64,000 nucleotides of DNA from Treponema sp. (GCA_017548565.1 JAFYZU010000010.1:80965-144964); one strand, 5' to 3'. Positions 2,613 through 55,905 are shown, counted from the stretch's first letter. Translations and numbers: made by a program. The notes: generated from the sequence alone by a model not told the origin.

Positions 2613-3281
2613 TTAAGCAGAGATTACATTTAATTTTATATAATCACACATATCTTTAAGGGAACTGCAGACCGCTAAACACATTTTTTCGAGTTCTGAA
2701 TCAGGCTGTATCATATCGGGAACCATAATTACGTTTAATCCTGCATTGAATGCGCTTTTTATACCATTTGGGCTGTCTTCAACGGCAATACATTCCTCTG
2801 GTTTAAATCCGATTTTTTCACATGCAATCCTGTAAATTTCGGGATCCGGTTTACTATGAACGACCATATCTCCGGTAACAATTTTTTCAAAAAAACCGAT
2901 TACCCCTGCAGAAGTTAATTGCCTTTCGACAGTTTTTTTTGCAGTTGAAGATGCAAGGGCCAGCTTAAAATGTCCTTTTAAAAAATCAAGTGATTCAGTA
3001 ACATAAGGAAGAAGAGGAATTCCCGATGAAAATTCAATTTCCCTGAAATATTCACCTGTAAGCGATAAAAACTCATCTACATCGAAATCATCACCATAAT
3101 AGTCTTTTAAAAGAATAACAGTATCATCATAATTAGTTCCGCGGCATTTATTGATGATCTGATCAGATGTTTTTTTTAACTTAAGTGTTTCTGCGGCTTT
3201 CTGCCAGGTAATGTCACTTATTCTTTCTGAATCAAGGATTACCCCGTCCATATCGAAAATTAATGCTTTTATTTTACACAT
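2613..3281 (-). CDS. HAD family phosphatase (beta-phosphoglucomutase-like)
   Basis: FDMDGV, KPDPEIY and EDSPNG motifs; SD GGAG lies inside the end of the kinase gene (13-nt overlap). Confidence 0.9.
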   Translation of the reverse strand: MCKIKALIFDMDGVILDSERISDITWQKAAETLKLKKTSDQIINKCRGTNYDDTVILLKDYYGDDFDVDEFLSLTGEYFREIEFSSGIPLLPYVTESLDFLKGHFKLALASSTAKKTVERQLTSAGVIGFFEKIVTGDMVVHSKPDPEIYRIACEKIGFKPEECIAVEDSPNGIKSAFNAGLNVIMVPDMIQPDSELEKMCLAVCSSLKDMCDYIKLNVISA

Positions 3282-9838: not shown

Positions 9839-10708
9839 ATGTATAAATTCGTTCCGCAAAAAAAACGCAGTCAATTCAGAATAAGGCTTGGCTGCGTTTT
9901 TTATACCCTTAAAAGATATCTTTACTGGTTAAAAAACAATTCAAAATTTGCTTCAATACCTGAAAAATATAAAAAATCAGATAATGAACAGTTAAAAAAA
10001 GATTATCCTGAGATTGTTTTTTACCATTCATCGCCTCTTTACAGGAATCTTTCAAAAGAAGATACAAAGCTTCAGAATGCAAAGGTTAATAACCTTCTTA
10101 TTGCAATTAAAAAAATCAATAAAACCGTCATAAAACCATCACAACTTTTTTCCTACTGGAAATTAATCGGTAATCCTTTAAAAATCAAGGGATATAAAAA
10201 AGGAATGATGCTCGTTAACGGAAGACCAAAGGCGGCAACTGGAGGCGGTTTGTGCGCACTTTCGAACCTTTTATACTGGATTTTCCTTCATTCAAGGCTT
10301 GTTGTAAAAGAAAGATGGCGCCACAGTTATGATGTTTTTCCGGATTCAAACAGAACCTTACCTTTCGGAAGCGGCGCAACCTGTGTCTATAACTTTCGCG
10401 ATCTTATTATCCTGAACGAAACAGAAGATGATTATGCACTTTTAGTAACGATTGAAAATAACCGGTTATGCGGTGAATTACGGGCAAAACAAAATCATAA
10501 TGAGGTTTACGAAGTATATCAGAAGGAGCATCACATTACACAGGAAGGAAGCGGAATTTTTGTCAGACATAATACTATTTACCGCAAAAAATATGAATCA
10601 GAAAATCAAAAAGAGCCTTCAGAAGACATTTATATTACCGAAAATCACGCTTTGATGATGTACAATCCGTTGATAAGTGAAAACAAGGAGACAAAAAGTG
10701 ACAGATAA
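9839..10708 (+). CDS. VanW family protein
   Basis: FSYWKLIG, GGGLCALSNLLY, ERWRHSYD and GATCVYNFRDL resemble the VanW domain. Confidence 0.82.
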   Translation: MYKFVPQKKRSQFRIRLGCVFYTLKRYLYWLKNNSKFASIPEKYKKSDNEQLKKDYPEIVFYHSSPLYRNLSKEDTKLQNAKVNNLLIAIKKINKTVIKPSQLFSYWKLIGNPLKIKGYKKGMMLVNGRPKAATGGGLCALSNLLYWIFLHSRLVVKERWRHSYDVFPDSNRTLPFGSGATCVYNFRDLIILNETEDDYALLVTIENNRLCGELRAKQNHNEVYEVYQKEHHITQEGSGIFVRHNTIYRKKYESENQKEPSEDIYITENHALMMYNPLISENKETKSDR

Positions 10709-12164
10709 ACAAAAAGTGTATAAAATAATAAACATATTAATAATAATTCTTACAATAATCACTATTTTTTTACTTCGTTTTTTAATTCTTTTTAAAACTT
10801 CACATCCTACCGGCCTGGACGGATACTATTATGCGCTTCAGGCAAAATCTTTTGCACTGACAGGAAAACTTGAAAATCCGGATTACGAAGCAGGATATTA
10901 CATCTGTGGTATTTTTGCACTGATATTTAAAAATGCGATACTAGGATGTAAAATCTGGGCAGCCTTATCTTCAACATTAATCAGTGTATCAATTTTTATA
11001 CTAGTTAAGACAATTTCCAGGAATAATAAAGCTGCATTTTTCGCATTAGTTTTAAGTGTACTCTCTCCTTCACTCACAGTTTTTGAAATAAATTACATCA
11101 ATAATCAGACAGGGCTCATGTTTTTCTTTTTTTACGCTGCCTGTTTCTTTACCCTTGTATTTAATTTTAAAAATCTTAGTAAAAAACAACGCATACTTAT
11201 TATAATTTTATGCCCTGTTCTTTTTATCCTTTCATGTATGTCACACCTTGTATCTACCGCTTACTGCTTTATATTTACAATCATTATTCTTGCACAAAAG
11301 CTTTCGGCTAAAAAACAGCTTGTTTTAGTCTGCACAGGAATAGCCGCATTCATTCTTTTATTTATATCACAGATTGGACGTTTCAAATCAGTTTTTTCAT
11401 TAACACCTGTTTTACCGGTATTTTCAAATTATTTCAGGACGAAACTTGGATTTTCTGTATGTCTTGAAATGACACTTTATTTTATTCTCTCTTATGCGCT
11501 TTCAATAATTCTCTTGATAAAAACAAGAAAATTCAATCTTCTTCTGCTGCTTCCGCTTATTCTGTTTTTCCCTTTCTGGAAGCTTGATTCTCTTGACATG
11601 GGCTACAGAATGCTGTTAAATGCAGTACCATGCGGAATCTGTTTTACTATAATAATGCTTTCAAAATCATTCCCTCAGATTACAAAAATCAAACCATTAT
11701 TTTTTTCAATATTCTGTATTGTATTAATACCTCTTTTTTTTCTAACATCAAAAATCTATAATCCCAAAAAAGATCCTCCGTATGAATATTACAAACAGAT
11801 AGTACAGAATGTCCATTTGCCAAAGGATTCTCTTCTTATTGCACATCTTGGATTAAATCACTGCTATACCTATTACATGGGTTTAAAAGACTGTCTGAAC
11901 TATTACTGCGATTATGAAGTTCCGGGGAATGAAGTCTGGCGTCTAGCTTATGGAGTTAATGCAGATTATTTAAAACAATTTTTCGGTGAATACAGCGATG
12001 AAGAGCTGGATAAACTGATTGTACAGATTGACCATAATTATGTGCTGATAAAAGAGGATTTATGGCTCCGTTATCTTTCTTATGAAGATGATGAAATTGT
12101 TGAAGCATTGCAGAACTGGTATAATCCGCATGAATACAGACCATCGTTCATAAGAAAAAAATAA
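10698..12164 (+). CDS. Polytopic membrane protein, GT-C-fold glycosyltransferase-like
   Basis: About ten or more hydrophobic segments; first loop HPTGLDGYYYALQA carries an acidic residue; soluble C-terminal tail. The GTG at 10698 follows SD GGAG. Confidence 0.6.
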   Translation: MTDKQKVYKIINILIIILTIITIFLLRFLILFKTSHPTGLDGYYYALQAKSFALTGKLENPDYEAGYYICGIFALIFKNAILGCKIWAALSSTLISVSIFILVKTISRNNKAAFFALVLSVLSPSLTVFEINYINNQTGLMFFFFYAACFFTLVFNFKNLSKKQRILIIILCPVLFILSCMSHLVSTAYCFIFTIIILAQKLSAKKQLVLVCTGIAAFILLFISQIGRFKSVFSLTPVLPVFSNYFRTKLGFSVCLEMTLYFILSYALSIILLIKTRKFNLLLLLPLILFFPFWKLDSLDMGYRMLLNAVPCGICFTIIMLSKSFPQITKIKPLFFSIFCIVLIPLFFLTSKIYNPKKDPPYEYYKQIVQNVHLPKDSLLIAHLGLNHCYTYYMGLKDCLNYYCDYEVPGNEVWRLAYGVNADYLKQFFGEYSDEELDKLIVQIDHNYVLIKEDLWLRYLSYEDDEIVEALQNWYNPHEYRPSFIRKK

Positions 12165-13859
12165 CTATTTGATATCCTTACGCATGATTTTACCCGAAAT
12201 TGTTTTGGGAAGACTGTCGCGGAATTCCACTATTCTCGGATATTTATAAGGGGCAGTTGTCTTTTTAACGAAAGACTGGATATCCTTTACAAGCTCATCT
12301 GAAGGTGAATAATTTTTGGCAAGAACAATAGTTGCCTTTACAACCTGCCCACGAACAGGATCAGGAGCGGCTGTAACTGCACATTCAACTACTGCAGGAT
12401 GCTGCATCAGAACGGATTCAACTTCGAAAGTACCGATTCTATAACCGGAACATTTAATTACATCATCATTGCGGCCGGTAAACCAGAAATAACCTTCTTC
12501 ATCTCTCCAAGCATTATCACTTGTATGGTAATAACCGTCATGCATTACAGATTTTGTCTTGGCTTCATCTGCAAAATATGACATAAAAAGCCCAGGGAAA
12601 TTACCGTTGCTCATATCTACAACTATCTCACCTACTTCACCATCCTGAACTTCATTCCCCTCTTCATTGAGTAATGTAACGTTATAATAAGGTGAAGGTT
12701 TACCAAGAGAGCCCGGCTTGATTTTTTCATTACCGTAGTTAAAAAGCGAAAGTGTTGTTTCTGTCTGACCAAAGCCTTCACGGATTTCTTTACCGGAAAT
12801 CTCTTTCCATTTATTGAAAACTTCTTCAGAAAGCGGTTCACCGGCAGTTGACCAGTGTTCACATGATGAAAAATCATATTTGCTTAAATCTTCCTGAATC
12901 AAAAATCTGTAGATTGTCGGAGGCGCACAAAAAGATGTTATTTTATGTTTTTCTATCTGCTGAATTAAATCAACAGGCTTGAATTTTGCATGATAGTCAT
13001 AGACAAAAACAGCGCATTCTGCTATCCATTGCCCGTAGAGCTTTCCCCATACTGCCTTTCCCCAGCCTGTATCTGCTACCGTAAGATGAAGTCCGCCTTT
13101 CTTTACCTGCTGCCAGTAGCTTGCAGTAACAATATGTCCGAGAGGATAAAGAAAATTATGAATTACAAGCTTAGGATGACTTGTAGTACCGGATGTAAAA
13201 TAAGCAAGCGATATATCATCGTTTTTACTTATATCATTTCTTGAAAGCTTATAAAAGGCCTCAAGCTGTTCATTCGAAACGTTTTTCATTCCTCTGGTTA
13301 AATCAATCCATTGAGAATGTTCTGCCTGTTCTTTTTCATCAAGACCTTTATCAATTCCAAACGGAGCGCAGGCAATGAGTGTTTTTAATGATTCACATTC
13401 TTTTTTTGCTTCTTCAATATATTTAAAAAGCTCCCTGTCATCAACTGCTACAATGGCTTTTATGAAGGCATTCTGACAGCGGAAAACAATATCTTCTTTT
13501 GTAAGCATGTGAGTTGCAGGAATAACTGCCGCACCGATTTTATGAAGTGCAATAATACTTATCCAGAATTCATAGCGTCTTTGAAGAATAAGCATTACAA
13601 AATCACCGCGCTTAATTCCCTGAGAAAGAAAAAATGCTGCAGCCCTGTCTGAACGTTCCTTTACATCCTTAAAGGTTAAAGTCAGCTCTTCATCATTATC
13701 ATTGCACCACACTAATGCCTTAGCATCAGGAGATTTTTCGGCAAGATAATCTACAACATCGTACCCGAAATTAAAATTCTGAGGTACCTTTATTTTATAA
13801 TTCTTAAAAAAATCATCATAATTCAAGAATTCAGTTTTTTCCAGAAATTGTTCAAGCAT
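12165..13859 (-). CDS. Short/medium-chain acyl-CoA synthetase (AMP-binding enzyme)
   Basis: YFTSGTTSHPK, GFGQTET, GRNDDVIK and PKTISGK. Confidence 0.92.
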   Translation of the reverse strand: MLEQFLEKTEFLNYDDFFKNYKIKVPQNFNFGYDVVDYLAEKSPDAKALVWCNDNDEELTLTFKDVKERSDRAAAFFLSQGIKRGDFVMLILQRRYEFWISIIALHKIGAAVIPATHMLTKEDIVFRCQNAFIKAIVAVDDRELFKYIEEAKKECESLKTLIACAPFGIDKGLDEKEQAEHSQWIDLTRGMKNVSNEQLEAFYKLSRNDISKNDDISLAYFTSGTTSHPKLVIHNFLYPLGHIVTASYWQQVKKGGLHLTVADTGWGKAVWGKLYGQWIAECAVFVYDYHAKFKPVDLIQQIEKHKITSFCAPPTIYRFLIQEDLSKYDFSSCEHWSTAGEPLSEEVFNKWKEISGKEIREGFGQTETTLSLFNYGNEKIKPGSLGKPSPYYNVTLLNEEGNEVQDGEVGEIVVDMSNGNFPGLFMSYFADEAKTKSVMHDGYYHTSDNAWRDEEGYFWFTGRNDDVIKCSGYRIGTFEVESVLMQHPAVVECAVTAAPDPVRGQVVKATIVLAKNYSPSDELVKDIQSFVKKTTAPYKYPRIVEFRDSLPKTISGKIMRKDIK

Positions 13860-13880
13860 ATATTCACATCCCGTATATTT

Positions 13881-14429
13881 TTATATTATCAGATCAAGAA
13901 ATTTTGCTTCTTTTTCAATAGCAACCATTGCATGCTTTTTAGTTGCATCAAAATAAACACTGTCACCTTCTTCAACTTTCATCGTTTTATCATCAACAGT
14001 AAGCTCCATTTTACCGCTGATCATGTAAACGAATTCATGTCCAGGATGAGAGTTATAATGAGGTTCTGCTTTTTCGCTGAAAGGAACAGTAACGATAAAA
14101 GGGTCAGATTTTCTGTTAATAAAACCGCTTGCAAGAGCTTCATATTTATAGTCACTTCGTCGTTCAACAGAAAGTCCCTTACCTTTTTTAGTAAGACAAT
14201 ATGAATGCATGTGAGGTTCTTTACCAGAAATTAAGGTTCCAAGATCGATGTTATATTTTTTAGACATCGACTGTAAAACTCCAACCGGAATATCAATCAT
14301 TCCGGATTCATATTTTTTATATAATTCCAGAGATACTCCGCAGACATCAGCTGCTTCCTGTTCAGAAACATCCATAATGTCACGTAAACCGATTAAACGA
14401 TCAGCAATTGCCTTAATTTCTTCATTCAT
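13881..14429 (-). CDS. XRE-family HTH plus cupin transcriptional regulator
   Basis: N-terminal HTH (LIGLRDIMDVSEQEAADVCG...YESG); C-terminal HPGHEFVYMISG cupin. Confidence 0.9.
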   Translation of the reverse strand: MNEEIKAIADRLIGLRDIMDVSEQEAADVCGVSLELYKKYESGMIDIPVGVLQSMSKKYNIDLGTLISGKEPHMHSYCLTKKGKGLSVERRSDYKYEALASGFINRKSDPFIVTVPFSEKAEPHYNSHPGHEFVYMISGKMELTVDDKTMKVEEGDSVYFDATKKHAMVAIEKEAKFLDLII

Positions 14430-14458
14430 ATTGAACCTCCTTAAAGTTATAAAAGGGA

Positions 14459-16105
14459 TTAATCATCAATTTTCAATGTTTCACGACGATATTTAGTTCC
14501 AATTTCTGTTAATTTAAATTTCTGTATTTTACCGCTTCCTGTCATTGGAAATTCCTTCATGAACATTACAAGCTGCGGCCATTTGAATTTTGCAAGCTTT
14601 CCACGGCAATATTCAATTACATCTTCTTCTGTAAGTGTTTTTCCTTCGTGAAGGATAATAAAGGCACCTGTAATTTCTCCATAACGTTCAGATTTGACAC
14701 CTGCAACCTGAATATCCTTTATTTCAGGAATATGAATGAGGAATTCTTCTATTTCACGAGGATAAATATTTTCACCACCGCGAATAATCATGTCTTTTAT
14801 TCTTCCTGTAATCCTGAAATTTCCGTTTTCATCCTTTACGCCAAGATCACCTGAATGAAGGAAACCGTTTTTATCAATTGTTTCTGCTGTAGCTTCAGGC
14901 ATTTTGTAATAACCTTTCATTACGTTCCAGCCTTTACAGCACATCTCTCCCTGAACTCCGACAGGACATTCTTTCCCTGTTTCAGGATCCAGAACCTTTA
15001 CTTCAATTCCTTCAAATGCATCACCGACAGTAGTTGCTTTTACTTCAACAGAATCATCCCAGTGACTTTGTGTCATTCCTGGACTTGATTCAGTCAATCC
15101 GTAAACAGATGTAATTTCAGGCATATGCATTTTATCCATTACAGTTTTCATAAGTTCGACCGGAACACCGGAACCTGCCATAATACCGGTCCTTAAAGAT
15201 GACATATCGAACATATTAAACATTGGATGATTCAATTCTGAAATGAACATCGTCGGTACACCGTAAATTGCAGTACATTTTTCTTTCTGAATAGATGCAA
15301 GGGCAACAAGAGGATCAAAGCTTTCAAGAAGAACATGAGTTGCTCCATGAGTAAGGACTGCCATTACACCAAGAACAATACCAAAGCAATGAAACAGAGG
15401 AACCGGAAGACATACCCTTTCTTTTTCGGTATAGCGCATTCGTTCGCCGATAATAAATCCGTCATTTATAATATTATGACTCGAAAGCATTACACCTTTA
15501 GGAAAGCCTGTCGTTCCTGATGTATACTGCATATTAACTACATCATGCTGATTAATTTCATTTTCAATTTTATGAATGATTTCAATATCAATGTGCTGAC
15601 CTAAAAGAAGAAGCTCAGGTGTTGAATAAAGACCTCTAAATTTTTCAGGTCCCATAAAAACTACATTACGAAGGCATGGAAAACGTTTAGATTTAAGGCA
15701 GCCTCTTTCATATTCATCAAGCTCAGGAACAAGTTCTTTTATCATCTGAACATAATTTGAATCTTTAACACCATCAGTAAGACAGAGAGTCGTAAGGTCT
15801 GCCTGTTTAACAAGATACTCAAGCTCATGAGATTTATAGGAAGTATTTACAGTAACTGCAACTGCTCCTAGTCTTGCACAGGCAAACATATAAGTAAGCC
15901 AGTCAGGAACATTTGTTGCCCAGATTCCGACATTATCGCCTTTACGCACTCCAATTGCATATAAACCGCATGCAAGATGATCTACACGATTATCAAACTG
16001 TGCATAAGTAAAACGAAGATCGCGATCGGCATAAACCATAAATTCCTGTTCAGGATTCTGCAAAGTTTTTTCTCTTAATAATTTTGATAATGTTAATTCA
16101 ATCAT
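14459..16105 (-). CDS. Acyl-CoA synthetase (AMP-binding enzyme, ACSF2-like)
   Basis: [41 protein letters not shown] and TGSGKIQK. Confidence 0.93.
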
Positions 16106-16111
16106 ATTGAA

Positions 16112-16140
16112 ATTATATATAAAAAAAAGAGAAAATTCAA
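16112..16140 (-). promoter_or_regulatory. Sigma70-type promoter of the acyl-CoA ligase operon, leaderless geometry
   Basis: TTGAAT (16140-16135), 17 nt, TATAAT (16117-16112), 6 nt, ATG; no SD. Confidence 0.7.
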
Positions 16141-16178
16141 TAAAAAAGTTTAAATATATTAAAGAAATTCAGTATAAA

Positions 16179-16589
16179 TTAAGTATTTTCACGCCATTTC
16201 TTGTATTTTTCAAGATCATATTTAACGCATTTTAGACAGATGGAAAGAATTCCCGCATCATCAAGATAACCTGCAAAAGGAATGAAATCAGGAATAACAT
16301 CGAACGGTGAAAGTACATAAAGAAGTGTTCCGATAATTGCGATTATTGTCCCGGCAGGAATATTCGTATATCTTTTCTTAAAATAATCCTTGAGCATCTG
16401 AAAAAACAACTGGACTTCATCGAGGAAGCCTTTTAAAAACCTGTTTTCCATTTTGCCTTTTATCGTATGTTCGTTTTTGAATACCTTTGAAATGTCTTTT
16501 TTCGAATATTTTTTCTGTGAAAAAGAATCGAATGTTTCGTTTACTTTTTGCTGCTGCTGTTCAGTAAGTTTTTTCTGTTTTCCAAACAT
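16179..16589 (-). CDS. YkvA/DUF1232 family membrane protein
   Basis: LLYVLSPFDVIPDFIPFAGYLDD. Confidence 0.9.
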   Translation of the reverse strand: MFGKQKKLTEQQQQKVNETFDSFSQKKYSKKDISKVFKNEHTIKGKMENRFLKGFLDEVQLFFQMLKDYFKKRYTNIPAGTIIAIIGTLLYVLSPFDVIPDFIPFAGYLDDAGILSICLKCVKYDLEKYKKWRENT

Positions 16590-52627: not shown

Positions 52628-53203
52628 TTAAGCGGGAGTATAAACTACTGCAAGAATTTTTGCCTTACTGTTTCCATGACTGTGAACGTGATGGGCAACG
52701 ATTGATTCATAATAAATTGAATCTCCGGTTTTAAGCTCATATTTATCTTTACCGTAAAGGATTTCTACTTCACCCTCAAGCACATAAATAAATTCTTCAC
52801 CTTCATGTGTAGAAAGTTTAACTTCTTCTTCTGATGAAGGAAAAATATCAATGATAAAAGGATCCATATGACGGCCTGCTTTATTCTGTGCAAGCGTATA
52901 AAAATCAAGATCTGAATTAACTGCATTTCCTCTGTCAGAAAAACGTGTCACTTCTTTTTTATCCTGAGCGCGTGCAATGACAGGACCTAAATTTTCGTCA
53001 TCATCCATAAATGTTCCAAGTCTTACGCCAAGCACACGTGCTATCTTAATCAGAGGAGTAAGATTAGGAACAAGACTTCCGTTTTCAATGCTTGTAATCT
53101 GTTCTACGCTTAAATTTGTTCTTTCACTTACATCTTCAATTGAAAGCTTTCTGTTTTCTCTGACTAATTTTACTTTTGCACCGATTTTATTTTTTTCACT
53201 CAT
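52628..53203 (-). CDS. XRE-family HTH plus cupin transcriptional regulator
   Basis: HTH with IENG...IKIARVLGV; STHEGEEFIYVLEG cupin; 1-nt overlap with the upstream gene. Confidence 0.92.
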   Translation of the reverse strand: MSEKNKIGAKVKLVRENRKLSIEDVSERTNLSVEQITSIENGSLVPNLTPLIKIARVLGVRLGTFMDDDENLGPVIARAQDKKEVTRFSDRGNAVNSDLDFYTLAQNKAGRHMDPFIIDIFPSSEEEVKLSTHEGEEFIYVLEGEVEILYGKDKYELKTGDSIYYESIVAHHVHSHGNSKAKILAVVYTPA

Positions 53204-53763
53204 TATTTTCCACCTTGAATTTCGTATTCCCTGTTATATGCCGCTTCAATTGTTGCAATATTAATAGGATTGAATTTTTTATTTCTTGCAGATATTGCTT
53301 CATCAAGAGCAAATTCAAATGGTTTTGGACCACTTATCATACCGTTAATTACTTTTGCAAGACAGCCCAGAACAACCATATTTGCACCACGAGGATTATT
53401 TGTTTCTGCTGCCAGTTCATTGCATGGTAAAGCAAGAAACCTTATGTCATTTCTCTGCGGTTTTATATCAATAAGACTCGAATTATAAATAAGAAGTCCA
53501 CCCTTTTTCAAAAGTGATTCAAATTTTGTCATACTCGGTTTATTGAGTGCTACGACAACATCCGGCTGTTCTATAACGGGAGATGCAACTTCTTCATCGC
53601 TTACAATAACCGAACAGTTGGCAGTACCACCGCGCATTTCTGCCCCGTAAGAAGGAATATGCGATACAAATTTCTGTTCACTCATACCGGCAAGTGCAAG
53701 AATTTTGCCTGCAAGGATTACTCCCTGACCTCCGAATCCTGCAAAAATTATTTCTGTTGTCAT
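53203..53763 (-). CDS. 2-oxoacid:ferredoxin oxidoreductase gamma subunit
   Basis: AGFGGQGV and SYGAEMRGG. Confidence 0.94.
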   Translation of the reverse strand: MTTEIIFAGFGGQGVILAGKILALAGMSEQKFVSHIPSYGAEMRGGTANCSVIVSDEEVASPVIEQPDVVVALNKPSMTKFESLLKKGGLLIYNSSLIDIKPQRNDIRFLALPCNELAAETNNPRGANMVVLGCLAKVINGMISGPKPFEFALDEAISARNKKFNPINIATIEAAYNREYEIQGGK

Positions 53764-54554
53764 TTTGCACCTCCTACAACGCCGGCAGTTGGTTTTGCTG
53801 CTTCAGGCACATTTCCTGCAGGAACATCCCTGAAAACCCCAAGCGGATAATATGGTTCCATCGCATCCTTTACCCATTGTGCTGCGGCAACAGGAGTAAC
53901 ACCCCAGTTAGTCGGACACATTGAAAGGATTTCAACAAATGAATATCCCTTCCCTTCCTTTTGATATGTAAGGGCTTTTTTAATAGCCGCCTTTGTCTGA
54001 TTTATATGCTTGACGTCATAAACGGCACATCGTTCGATATATTTTGGTTCAACGAGGGTATTGATTATTTCACAAGCCCTTATAGGATAACCTACATCAT
54101 CTGCATTTCGTCCATATGGGGTAGTTTTCGTGACCTGTCCTACGAGAGATGTCGGTGCCATCTGACCGCCTGTCATACCGTAAATTGCATTGTTTATAAA
54201 AATTACGGTAATATTTTCACCACGATTTGCCGCATGTACTGTTTCTGCAGTACCGATTGCAAGGAGATCTCCATCACCCTGATAACTTATAACGATTTTA
54301 TCCGGATGAACTCTTTTCAAGCCTGTTGCAACTGCAGGTGCACGACCATGAGCCGCTTCACACGAATCAACATTGATATAATTGTATGCATAAACTGCAC
54401 AACCAACCGGCGCTACAAGAAGAACGTCATTCTGAATATTCATCTCATCTATAACCTGAGCAATAAGTTTGTGAACAATTCCATGTCCGCAGCCGGCACA
54501 ATAATGAGTTTTAACATCTTTCATCGATCGTGGAAATTCATATTTTTTAGACAT
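53760..54554 (-). CDS. 2-oxoacid:ferredoxin oxidoreductase beta (TPP-binding) subunit
   Basis: YCAGCGH, HGRA, QGDGD, NNAIYGMTGGQ and CP. Confidence 0.94.
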   Translation of the reverse strand: MSKKYEFPRSMKDVKTHYCAGCGHGIVHKLIAQVIDEMNIQNDVLLVAPVGCAVYAYNYINVDSCEAAHGRAPAVATGLKRVHPDKIVISYQGDGDLLAIGTAETVHAANRGENITVIFINNAIYGMTGGQMAPTSLVGQVTKTTPYGRNADDVGYPIRACEIINTLVEPKYIERCAVYDVKHINQTKAAIKKALTYQKEGKGYSFVEILSMCPTNWGVTPVAAAQWVKDAMEPYYPLGVFRDVPAGNVPEAAKPTAGVVGGAK

Positions 54555-55596
54555 AGCTTTTTACCTTCTCAATAATTGCATCTACCTTCGGAATGATTCC
54601 GCCTGGTTCACCATAAAATTCTACATCGCTTACCTGATGCCCGCTGTAAAGCTTTACATCCTGTACCATCTGACCCATTGACATTTCTACAGTAAGAATC
54701 TTTTTTGCCTTTGATGATGCTTTTACGAGCTGTTCTTTCGGGAATGGCCACAAGGTTACCGGTCTGAACAATCCGGCTTTTATTCCCTGTTCACGAAGCA
54801 TCTTTACTGCTTTTTTACATACACGTGCTGCAGTACCATAACCTGTAAGAACTATATCCGCATCATCACACATAAAGGATTCACTGATAGTCTCGTTCTT
54901 CTGGATTTTTTCATAATTATCAAAAAGCTCTTTTGTATGCTTATTAAGATCAAAATCATCACCATTTAATCTTAAAGAAAGTACAATGTTATTATCACGT
55001 TTATCTGTTTTACCTGTTAAAGCCCATGGTTTTGAAGGAAAATCCTTTACATAATCAGGAAGTTCACAAGGTTCACTCATCTGTCCTAAATATCCGTCGC
55101 CTAAAATCATGCATACAACTCGATATTTATCTGCAATCTCAAAGGCTTTTACAGTATAATCTGCCATTTCCTGAACAGTTCCCGGAGCAATAACGACTAC
55201 ATGATAGTCACCGTTTCCGCCGCCACGTGTTGCCTGAAAATAATCGCCCTGTGCACCGCTGATATTTCCAAGACCGGGACCACCTCGCATCATATTTACA
55301 ACAACTGCAGGAAGCTGTGCCCCGGAAAGATATGAAATTCCTTCCTGCTTTAAAGAAATTCCTGGTGAAGATGAAGAAGTCATTGCCCTTGCACCTGCAG
55401 CACTCGCACCCATTACCATATTTATTGCAGCAAGTTCACTTTCTGCCTGTAAAAAAGTACCATGTTCTTCGGGAAGACGCTTTGCCATATATGCAGGAAT
55501 TTCATTCTGCGGTGTAATAGGATAAGCAAAATAAAAACGGCATCCGGCCCTGATTGCGGCCTCTCCGATTGCTTCATTACCTTTCATTAAAACCAT
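54547..55596 (-). CDS. vorB: 2-oxoacid:ferredoxin oxidoreductase alpha subunit, VorB-like (branched-chain 2-oxoacid type)
   Basis: MKGNEAIGEAA, YPITPQNE, QAESE, SSSPG and RGGPGLG; start at 55596 after SD GGAG. Confidence 0.88.
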   Translation of the reverse strand: MVLMKGNEAIGEAAIRAGCRFYFAYPITPQNEIPAYMAKRLPEEHGTFLQAESELAAINMVMGASAAGARAMTSSSSPGISLKQEGISYLSGAQLPAVVVNMMRGGPGLGNISGAQGDYFQATRGGGNGDYHVVVIAPGTVQEMADYTVKAFEIADKYRVVCMILGDGYLGQMSEPCELPDYVKDFPSKPWALTGKTDKRDNNIVLSLRLNGDDFDLNKHTKELFDNYEKIQKNETISESFMCDDADIVLTGYGTAARVCKKAVKMLREQGIKAGLFRPVTLWPFPKEQLVKASSKAKKILTVEMSMGQMVQDVKLYSGHQVSDVEFYGEPGGIIPKVDAIIEKVKSYV

Positions 55597-55606
55597 ATAC
55601 ACTCCA

Positions 55607-55819
55607 TTACAGCTGTTCAATTTCTATTGCACAATCCGGACACATTGTTGCGCAGAACGAACATGCAATACATTCAGCTTCATTTTTACATACAGGATAA
55701 TTAACACCCTGACCGTTAGTTTCTTCTGACATTTCCAAAATATTTTTTGGACAAGAACCGATGCAAAGTTCACATCCCTTGCAGCGCTCTTTATCGATTA
55801 AAGGTCTTCCTTTAGCCAT
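55607..55819 (-). CDS. 2[4Fe-4S] ferredoxin (delta subunit)
   Basis: CKGCELCIGSCP and CIACSFCATMCP. Confidence 0.95.
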   Translation of the reverse strand: MAKGRPLIDKERCKGCELCIGSCPKNILEMSEETNGQGVNYPVCKNEAECIACSFCATMCPDCAIEIEQL

Positions 55820-55837: not shown

Positions 55838-55866
55838 ATATTAAATCAAAATACAAAAGAATACAA
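55838..55866 (-). promoter_or_regulatory. Promoter of the oxidoreductase operon
   Basis: TTGTAT (55866-55861), 17 nt, TAATAT (55843-55838); SD AGGAG. Confidence 0.55.
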
Positions 55867-55878
55867 TACAGTTTTATT

Positions 55879-55905
55879 AAAAAACTTTAATATTATTAAA
55901 GTTTT
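55879..55905 (-). terminator. Probable intrinsic terminator
   Basis: 11-bp perfect stem AAAACTTTAAT / ATTAAAGTTTT ending in a T-run on the - strand. Confidence 0.5.

Follow-up and report, generated by a model that had tools for sequence, protein, structure and literature searches.

Background

It has long been known that isobutyrate, 2-methylbutyrate and isovalerate, the "isoacids" that are fed to ruminants, are required or used by anaerobes of the rumen and gut and by methanogens, and the spirochaete Treponema bryantii is said, in work by Stanton and Canale-Parola from 1980, to need isobutyrate and 2-methylbutyrate. A literature search for genes or regulators of the isoacid route, for the cluster described here and for its regulator found no paper. 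Here we describe two loci in a 64,000-nucleotide stretch of DNA from Treponema sp. (GCA_017548565.1 JAFYZU010000010.1:80965-144964; hereafter, the window), which belongs to the 2.55-Mb genome of a rumen Treponema with 36% G+C: a cassette of two acyl-CoA ligase genes and a gene for an XRE-cupin regulator (lig2-xreL-lig1), and an operon for a four-subunit 2-oxoacid:ferredoxin oxidoreductase of the VOR type and a second XRE-cupin regulator (vorDABC-xreV). With moderate confidence, we favor the view that these are the separated halves of one ancestral cluster that, together with ilvE, form one regulon predicted to activate branched acids, which would then be reductively carboxylated on the way to amino acids. 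The biochemistry behind such a route has long been known; new are the proof of the split, the series of genomes in which the junction opens, the operator, the link to ilvE, the XreL-Macs-vor arrangement in methanogens and the correlation with ilvCD.

The closest described counterpart of Lig1 is Macs of Methanosarcina acetivorans (MacsMa, PDB 3ETC), which adenylates C3-C8 acids and prefers 2-methylbutyrate, the sole substrate carried through to CoA ligation (PMC10455477). The two proteins share a two-domain AMP-forming fold and align over the full length; Lig1, however, is bacterial and is encoded ~39 kb from the vor genes in the window, whereas the MacsMa orthologues of other Methanosarcina, Methanolobus and Methanobacterium are encoded between the XreL orthologue and vorDABC. 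MbcS of Staphylococcus aureus activates exogenous 2-methylbutyrate and isobutyrate and feeds FabH for lipid priming (PMC10026030); its gene, unlike the Lig1 cluster, is not linked to a VOR or XRE-cupin gene. In methanogens, branched acids serve as precursors of Ile and Leu (PMC10658910). The VORs of Methanothermobacter (anabolic) and of Pyrococcus and Clostridium (catabolic) have the same delta-alpha-beta-gamma make-up as the window enzyme, and for the Methanothermobacter VOR, reverse running for amino-acid synthesis has been proposed. An AMP-forming ligase beside a 2-oxoacid oxidoreductase has been argued to mark the biosynthetic direction, whereas catabolic VORs cluster with kinases instead (PMC13285125); the window cluster carries AMP-forming ligases and regulators. 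The Bacteroides module of IOR and arylacetate-CoA ligase also places an oxidoreductase beside an AMP-forming ligase and is read, as we do here, as acid-to-amino-acid biosynthesis (PMC13285125), but it handles aromatic acids with a two-subunit IOR and has no described XRE-cupin partner, in contrast to the four-subunit VOR and the XRE-cupins of the window.

The XRE-cupin factors studied to date are local repressors of neighboring metabolic genes; among those that control such genes, PauR, PsdR and ErfA of Pseudomonas and PuuR of Escherichia coli combine HTH_3 and Cupin_2 domains in the same way as XreV, the regulator encoded in the VOR operon (PMC7901475). As a counterpart to this control of neighbors, a palindromic site is found at neighboring promoters for XreV. 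Unlike the precedents, the proposed XreV regulon would include the unlinked ilvE and a distant former neighbor, and for the Pseudomonas set no 1:1 pairing of regulators with ligases has been described.

The ancestral cluster and its split

Both loci consist of intact open reading frames (ORFs), all on the minus strand. In the ligase cassette, Lig2 (14459-16105, 548 aa), XreL (13881-14429, 182 aa) and Lig1 (12165-13859, 564 aa) are separated by gaps of 29 nt (Lig2/XreL) and 21 nt (XreL/Lig1), each with a Shine-Dalgarno site; in the VOR operon, VorD, the delta subunit (55607-55819), is followed by the alpha (54547-55620), beta (53760-54554) and gamma (53203-53763) subunits and by XreV (52628-53203, 191 aa). 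These reading frames and their domains agree with the initial annotation, which had described a ligase-XRE/cupin-ligase cassette at 12165-16140 and a Vor operon at 52628-55819 that ends in a paralogous XRE/cupin with no ligase behind it: the gene directly after xreV encodes a signal peptidase.

The window proteins were mapped onto 80 loci that encode XreV relatives. The order vorDABC-xreV-lig2-xreL-lig1 is contiguous in the spirochaete loci L016, L021, L022, L025, L026, L027 and L030, and also in L119; five contiguous spirochaete loci add a further XreL'-Lig1' pair. Given that L016, a Treponema locus, keeps the whole cluster along with the same upstream flank as the window, the contiguous state is ancestral, and the vor side stayed in place. 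In 64 of the 80 loci, among them loci of Bacteroidales, Methanosarcina, Methanolobus and Methanobacterium, lig2 follows xreV in the same orientation, and an XreL orthologue is always encoded directly ahead of Lig1-type ligases, in spirochaetes, Bacteroidales and methanogens alike. The repeating unit is therefore regulator-then-ligase (XreV-Lig2, XreL-Lig1), and not ligase-XRE-ligase, as the cassette reads in the window, where it is the tail left after XreV was cut off. This synteny comparison, together with the co-occurrence of XreV and Lig2 and the shared operator that extends to ilvE (see below), supports the proposal in the initial annotation that a single pathway was split by rearrangement. 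The contiguity of vor, XRE and ligase genes, which the initial annotation had given for some Bacteroidota and methanogens, is found in spirochaetes; in the Bacteroidales, the vor genes lie close by, either in convergent orientation or at a distance of a few kb, and methanogens have a different order. Specifically, in four methanogens (two Methanosarcina, one Methanolobus and Methanobacterium oryzae), the genes for the XreL orthologue, the Lig1 (Macs) orthologue and vorD-vorA are contiguous, in the order XreL-Macs-vorDABC, with XreV-Lig2 as a separate pair.

XreV is 53-60% identical across Treponema, Bacteroidales and Methanosarcinales/Methanobacterium (L037-L086), a level of conservation between domains that is unusual for a transcription factor and suggests that the regulator-ligase pair has been transferred between Bacteria and Archaea.

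In the window, the two halves keep the ancestral order and strand but lie 36.5 kb apart. The intervening region (16179-52559, minus strand) consists of co-directional core genes, among them those for DUF1232, MiaA, a methyltransferase, a V-type ATPase operon, FlhA, FlhF, FapA, FliM, FliN, MotAB, a radical-SAM protein and the signal peptidase, which are absent from the same junction in relatives. No tRNA, mobile-element genes, or direct or inverted repeats at the junctions were found for this insert, and no intrinsic terminator was found after xreV. Among 61 genomes of the genus, XreV is present in 10 and Lig2 in 11, and all 10 genomes with XreV also have Lig2. The distance between XreV and Lig2 varies widely: 0.16 kb in G019, 4.4 kb in G020, G053 and G037 (with Lig2 inverted in the last), 9.8 kb in G011, 11.8 kb in G032 and 36.5 kb in the window genome; in T. 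bryantii NK4A124, it is apparently 17.6 kb, provided that contig C9 is the same as scaffold 9. The junction has opened repeatedly within the genus, and both halves remain intact across species at 80-95% protein identity.

The 4.4-kb inserts contain a FIST sensor gene and a HydA-like/GGDEF/EAL gene, and these genes are found between XreV and Lig2 in several rumen Treponema (L011:7943-12192; L118:4855-9071). They use the operator-bearing intergenic region of Lig2, being divergent from it in L011 and co-oriented behind Lig2 in L118, so that cyclic di-GMP signaling may be tied to the same regulator. Another locus, L012, is a 2.5-kb contig binned as "Candidatus Onthoplasma sp." with an XreV-Lig2 pair 91% and 86% identical to the window proteins, and is probably a mis-binned Treponema contig.

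A conserved operator upstream of vorD, lig2 and ilvE

A palindrome with a 17-bp core, CTTTAATA-N-TATTAAAG, precedes vorD, lig2 and the unlinked ilvE. At vorD, it forms part of a perfect 25-bp palindrome (55881-55905, core 55885-55901) located 66 nt upstream of the vorD start, and this is the sole zero-mismatch site in the 2.55-Mb genome. Thirteen Treponema-type loci keep the operator before vorD, frequently as a pair of copies spaced by 19 bp. Between this operator and the -10 region of vorD there is another conserved element, AAAACTGTATTGTAT (55855-55880), common to the window, L007, L008, L009, L014 and L016; it may represent the -35 region or an additional site of binding.

Upstream of lig2, the window contains a proximal operator copy (16148-16164), 7 nt upstream of the -35 hexamer of the Lig2 promoter, and a degenerate distal copy (~16167-16183). 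The promoter itself (16106-16140, minus strand) reads TTGAAT-17-TATAAT-6-ATG, with 10/12 matches in a consensus scan. The promoter is conserved in split-cluster relatives; with only 6 nt from the -10 hexamer to the ATG and no Shine-Dalgarno site, the Lig2 mRNA is probably leaderless. All the relatives with a detached Lig2 (L010, L011, L013, L015, L017, L116 and L118) have operator copies before Lig2, with at most 2 mismatches on the cores searched and at most 3 in L011 and L013. These copies are located 44 and 63 nt before Lig2, are in tandem except in L116, and lie in promoter regions that align with each other. No operator site was found before Lig2 in contiguous clusters; the contiguous L016 has the same tandem-site promoter before XreL-Lig1.

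A scan of the window genome identifies 8 operator sites with at most 2 mismatches. At ilvE, on contig C12, a tandem operator pair is located between the -10 hexamer and the Shine-Dalgarno site. IlvE passes two equivalog models for branched-chain aminotransferases, NF009897 (449.9 bits against a cut-off of 307) and TIGR01123 (382.4 against 250). In T. bryantii, the sole perfect match to the degenerate palindrome in 3.3 Mb occupies the same position before ilvE, and operator copies precede ilvE in HAN031 and RUI554 as well, so that the ilvE operator is present in four species. Thus, vorDABC-xreV, lig2-xreL-lig1 and ilvE are three transcription units with one conserved operator. The position of the operator at ilvE would fit repression, whereas the positions at vorD and lig2 would also allow activation.

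The other near-operator matches in T. bryantii and RUI554 are inside genes or next to genes for a VWA protein, proteins of unknown function, GcpE and PurA, with no evident link to the pathway. In the window genome, a 2-mismatch operator (C14:45553-45569; L088 ~3054-3070) lies between hisG and the gene for a third AMP-forming ligase, which is PRK06187-like and 31% identical to Lig2; this site could mark a further regulon member or be a chance match.

Predicted functions of the encoded proteins

The VOR operon encodes four separate subunits in the order delta-alpha-beta-gamma, which is kept in relatives, with VorD in front of the alpha subunit in all of them. VorD is a small 2x[4Fe-4S] ferredoxin-like protein (70-aa ORF) with two CxxCxxCxxxCP-type motifs. 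The alpha subunit (POR_N and PFOR_II domains) passes the VOR-specific model NF005507, "VorB", with 512 bits against a cut-off of 399; its homologues align from residue 10 onward, and translation probably begins at the ATG ~8 codons into the TTG-initiated ORF as listed. The beta subunit (PF02775, thiamine pyrophosphate-binding) and the gamma subunit (PF01558, 127 bits) match only generic models of 2-oxoacid:ferredoxin oxidoreductases, all under the cut-offs. Elsewhere in the window genome, on contigs C53 (21812-22309) and C20 (4428-4988), which are represented by L005 and L006, there are two more large ORFs (~640-670 aa) with a POR_N domain that may be alpha subunits of indolepyruvate-type oxidoreductases, hinting at a parallel aromatic-acid route.

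Both ligases have the domain order of the ANL superfamily, AMP-binding (PF00501) followed by AMP-binding_C (PF13193), with 208 and 81 bits for Lig1 and 310 and 56 bits for Lig2, and are only 22% identical to each other. The alignment of Lig1 to Macs of M. acetivorans spans the full length, with 660 bits. Its top NCBIfam model is MbcS (NF047394), with 439 bits, which is under the equivalog cut-off of 850, so that Lig1 is not an MbcS by this model. Lig1 is likely a 2-methylbutyrate/isobutyrate-CoA ligase of the Macs/MbcS type. Lig2, the conserved partner of XreV, is of the PRK12583 type and has no characterized close relative: it scores 684 bits against NF009233 (cut-off 832), and the top solved structure matches with only 253 bits.

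The regulator XreV combines an N-terminal XRE helix-turn-helix (HTH) domain (HTH_3, 45 bits) with a C-terminal cupin domain (Cupin_2, 59 bits), and is 99% identical to its counterpart in the metagenome-assembled genome RUI208 and 95% identical to the one in T. bryantii NK4A124. It scores 47.9 bits against the PuuR equivalog NF007408 (cut-off 211) and falls outside that family. In XreL, the HTH_3 match is marginal (24.6 bits, cut-off 23) and the Cupin_2 match is 61 bits; the two regulators are distant paralogues, with 26% identity over the linker and cupin (E=8e-13). Given its much stronger HTH match, XreV is favored over XreL as the likely binder of the palindrome. A further argument for XreV, the apparent lack of XreL in some species, was withdrawn when Lig1 was found 3.7 kb beyond Lig2 in one such genome.

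The top matches of XreV among solved structures are HppE and methylphosphonate synthase, which are enzymes with an HTH-like domain and an Fe(II) cupin; XreV, in contrast, has a canonical XRE HTH and a promoter-linked palindrome. Three XreV residues, H133, E137 and H171, are invariant in 13 homologues, are kept in XreL, and align with H138, E142 and H180 of HppE, which we take to be the iron ligands of that enzyme. We infer that XreV carries an HppE-like His/Glu/His metal site.

Predicted pathway and alternative explanations

In the predicted pathway, the AMP-forming ligases would activate exogenous branched short-chain acids to acyl-CoAs, with Lig1 probably taking 2-methylbutyrate and isobutyrate and Lig2 providing a second specificity; the four-subunit VOR, with reduced ferredoxin, would reductively carboxylate the acyl-CoAs to branched 2-oxoacids; and IlvE would transaminate these to Val and Ile, with Leu made from 2-oxoisovalerate via LeuABCD. 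An XRE-cupin dimer, most likely of XreV, would bind the palindrome at the vorD, lig2 and ilvE promoters and respond to a small, carboxylate-type ligand at the His/Glu/His metal site. The same acyl-CoAs may also prime branched lipid synthesis. The same 17-bp control site is found at both halves and at ilvE, so that all three are probably still operated as a single regulated pathway. A branched-chain pathway had already been suggested by the initial annotation and is now supported by the homology of Lig1 to the 2-methylbutyrate-preferring Macs, the match of the alpha subunit to a VorB-type model and the operator at ilvE.

On this reading, a pathway can stay one regulon after the physical scattering of its genes. 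The locus and its relatives provide a testable set consisting of two ligases, one VOR, IlvE, a candidate regulator and a 17-bp operator, and this set also occurs in T. bryantii NK4A124, which belongs to a named species available in culture.

The content of branched-chain genes in these genomes is compatible with a role in the supply of 2-oxoacids. In the five spirochaete genomes with three regulator/ligase pairs (G005, G071-G074; loci L021, L022, L023, L025 and L026), there are zero matches to IlvD and KARI in 5/5 (the completeness of the genomes is not given), whereas LeuA-like genes are kept in 5/5 and IlvE in 4/5; these genomes represent two or three lineages only. IlvD is present in all 6 tested genomes with two cluster ligases. 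A leucine branch in the absence of IlvC and IlvD would make sense if VOR provided the 2-oxoisovalerate, and counting the regulator/ligase pairs in a genome sequence may allow auxotrophy for branched-chain amino acids to be predicted. The window genome belongs to the other kind: it encodes KARI, IlvD, two LeuA-like proteins, LeuB, an ALS-like enzyme and FabH. The simple explanation that a lack of ilv genes makes the organism dependent on branched acids is thereby rejected.

A broader proposal, which we put forward tentatively and are inclined to doubt as a whole, is that XreV senses, in a metal-dependent way through its His/Glu/His cupin, a branched compound (a 2-oxoacid, an amino acid or an acyl compound) and is the trans-acting master regulator of vor, the ligases and ilvE, a hitherto undescribed functional counterpart of CodY/Lrp-type control in spirochaetes; that the module moved between Bacteria and methanogenic Archaea; and that each extra pair adds one acid specificity, the number of pairs tracking the loss of de novo synthesis of branched-chain amino acids.

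Several observations weigh against a single regulon for the assimilation of branched acids into amino acids. Substrates, flux direction, the operator binder, the sign of control and the ligand are all deduced for proteins that are known here from sequence alone. The proximal operator copy at lig2 in the window has 3 mismatches, and 1.85 such matches are expected per window by chance; the weight of this site comes from its conservation in relatives. The operator is located upstream of the -35 hexamer at vorD and lig2 and downstream of the -10 hexamer at ilvE, so that no single control mode is evident, and a search of the sequence ahead of XreV in the Bacteroidales and methanogen loci found neither the Treponema operator nor a prominent shared 8-mer. 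Membership in the VOR clade does not fix the substrate, given that HpdDEFG, a VOR-clade enzyme, is specific for arylpyruvate. Because the window genome keeps the ilv/leu set, the route would be a facultative salvage pathway not needed for prototrophy. T. bryantii has IlvD, too. Finally, FabH is present in the window genome, and the top model for Lig1 is MbcS, which serves lipid priming in S. aureus.

The last three points are also the strengths of the main rival, which we regard as unlikely and yet the most serious one, namely that the system supplies primers for the branched-chain lipids of the membrane: the ligases, in the manner of MbcS, and a VOR working oxidatively, as a functional analogue of Bkd fed from amino acids by IlvE, would make branched acyl-CoAs from which FabH starts iso- and anteiso-fatty acids, and selection would not have acted on amino-acid synthesis. 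MbcS acts on the very acids predicted for Lig1 and does so for FabH (PMC10026030), and with FabH and a full-looking ilv/leu set in the genome, amino-acid salvage would be dispensable. The reported branched-acid need of T. bryantii, in an organism that has IlvD, would fit a need for lipids better than one for amino acids. However, the supply of acyl-CoAs from de novo 2-oxoacids by an oxidative VOR would leave no requirement for branched acids; clustered genes usually act in series rather than in parallel; and the presence of three ligase pairs together with the loss of IlvC and IlvD and the retention of LeuA-like genes points to the supply of 2-oxoacids. Methanogens have isoprenoid lipids, not fatty-acid lipids, and do not ferment amino acids, and the XRE-cupin/Macs/vor module is contiguous in these organisms.

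Under another alternative, which we consider improbable, the two loci form one unit with non-branched substrates, converting propionate, butyrate, valerate or arylacetates to other 2-oxoacids. The lack of a characterized close relative of Lig2, the adenylation of C3-C8 acids by Macs and the arylpyruvate specificity of HpdDEFG, along with some phenylpyruvate activity of the VOR of M. thermoautotrophicum, all leave room for such substrates. Yet Macs carries 2-methylbutyrate alone through to the CoA ester, the score of the alpha subunit exceeds the cut-off of the VorB-type model, the loss of IlvC and IlvD accompanies three ligase pairs, and the gene that carries the operator in four species is ilvE, which passes the branched-chain aminotransferase equivalogs.

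Slightly less probable still is a catabolic fermentation in which IlvE and VOR would oxidize Val, Ile and Leu to acyl-CoAs for energy, the ligases being unrelated neighbors or serving to recapture acids. VOR is reversible, catabolic VORs are well known in Pyrococcus and Clostridium, ilvE shares the operator, and a marine spirochaete reportedly ferments branched amino acids in starvation (work attributed to Harwood and Canale-Parola, 1981). Against this, catabolic VORs cluster with kinases and phosphotransacylases, whereas the window cluster has only AMP-forming ligases, which favor acyl-CoA formation; the PTA/PTB and acetate-kinase families are represented in the window genome by one gene each, with no linkage between the two or to vor, and the genome has no dedicated ATP-yielding catabolic branch; and the same module occurs in the non-fermenting methanogens. 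Finally, that the two loci are now independent, with their likeness a relic of descent and the lig2 palindrome in the window a chance AT-rich match, is very improbable: the mismatches of this site, and the 36.5-kb gap that, with no clear terminator after xreV, shows vor in a different transcriptional context, speak for independence, but split-cluster relatives keep low-mismatch operator copies at the homologous lig2 position, every XreV genome in the genus sample also has Lig2, and both halves are intact at the high protein identity given above.

Other features of the window

Next to the ligase cassette, the 495-aa ORF at 10677-12164 (plus strand), which has zero Pfam or NCBIfam matches, runs toward lig1 and stops exactly at the end of the Lig1 ORF (12164/12165); the gene upstream of it encodes a VanW-domain protein.

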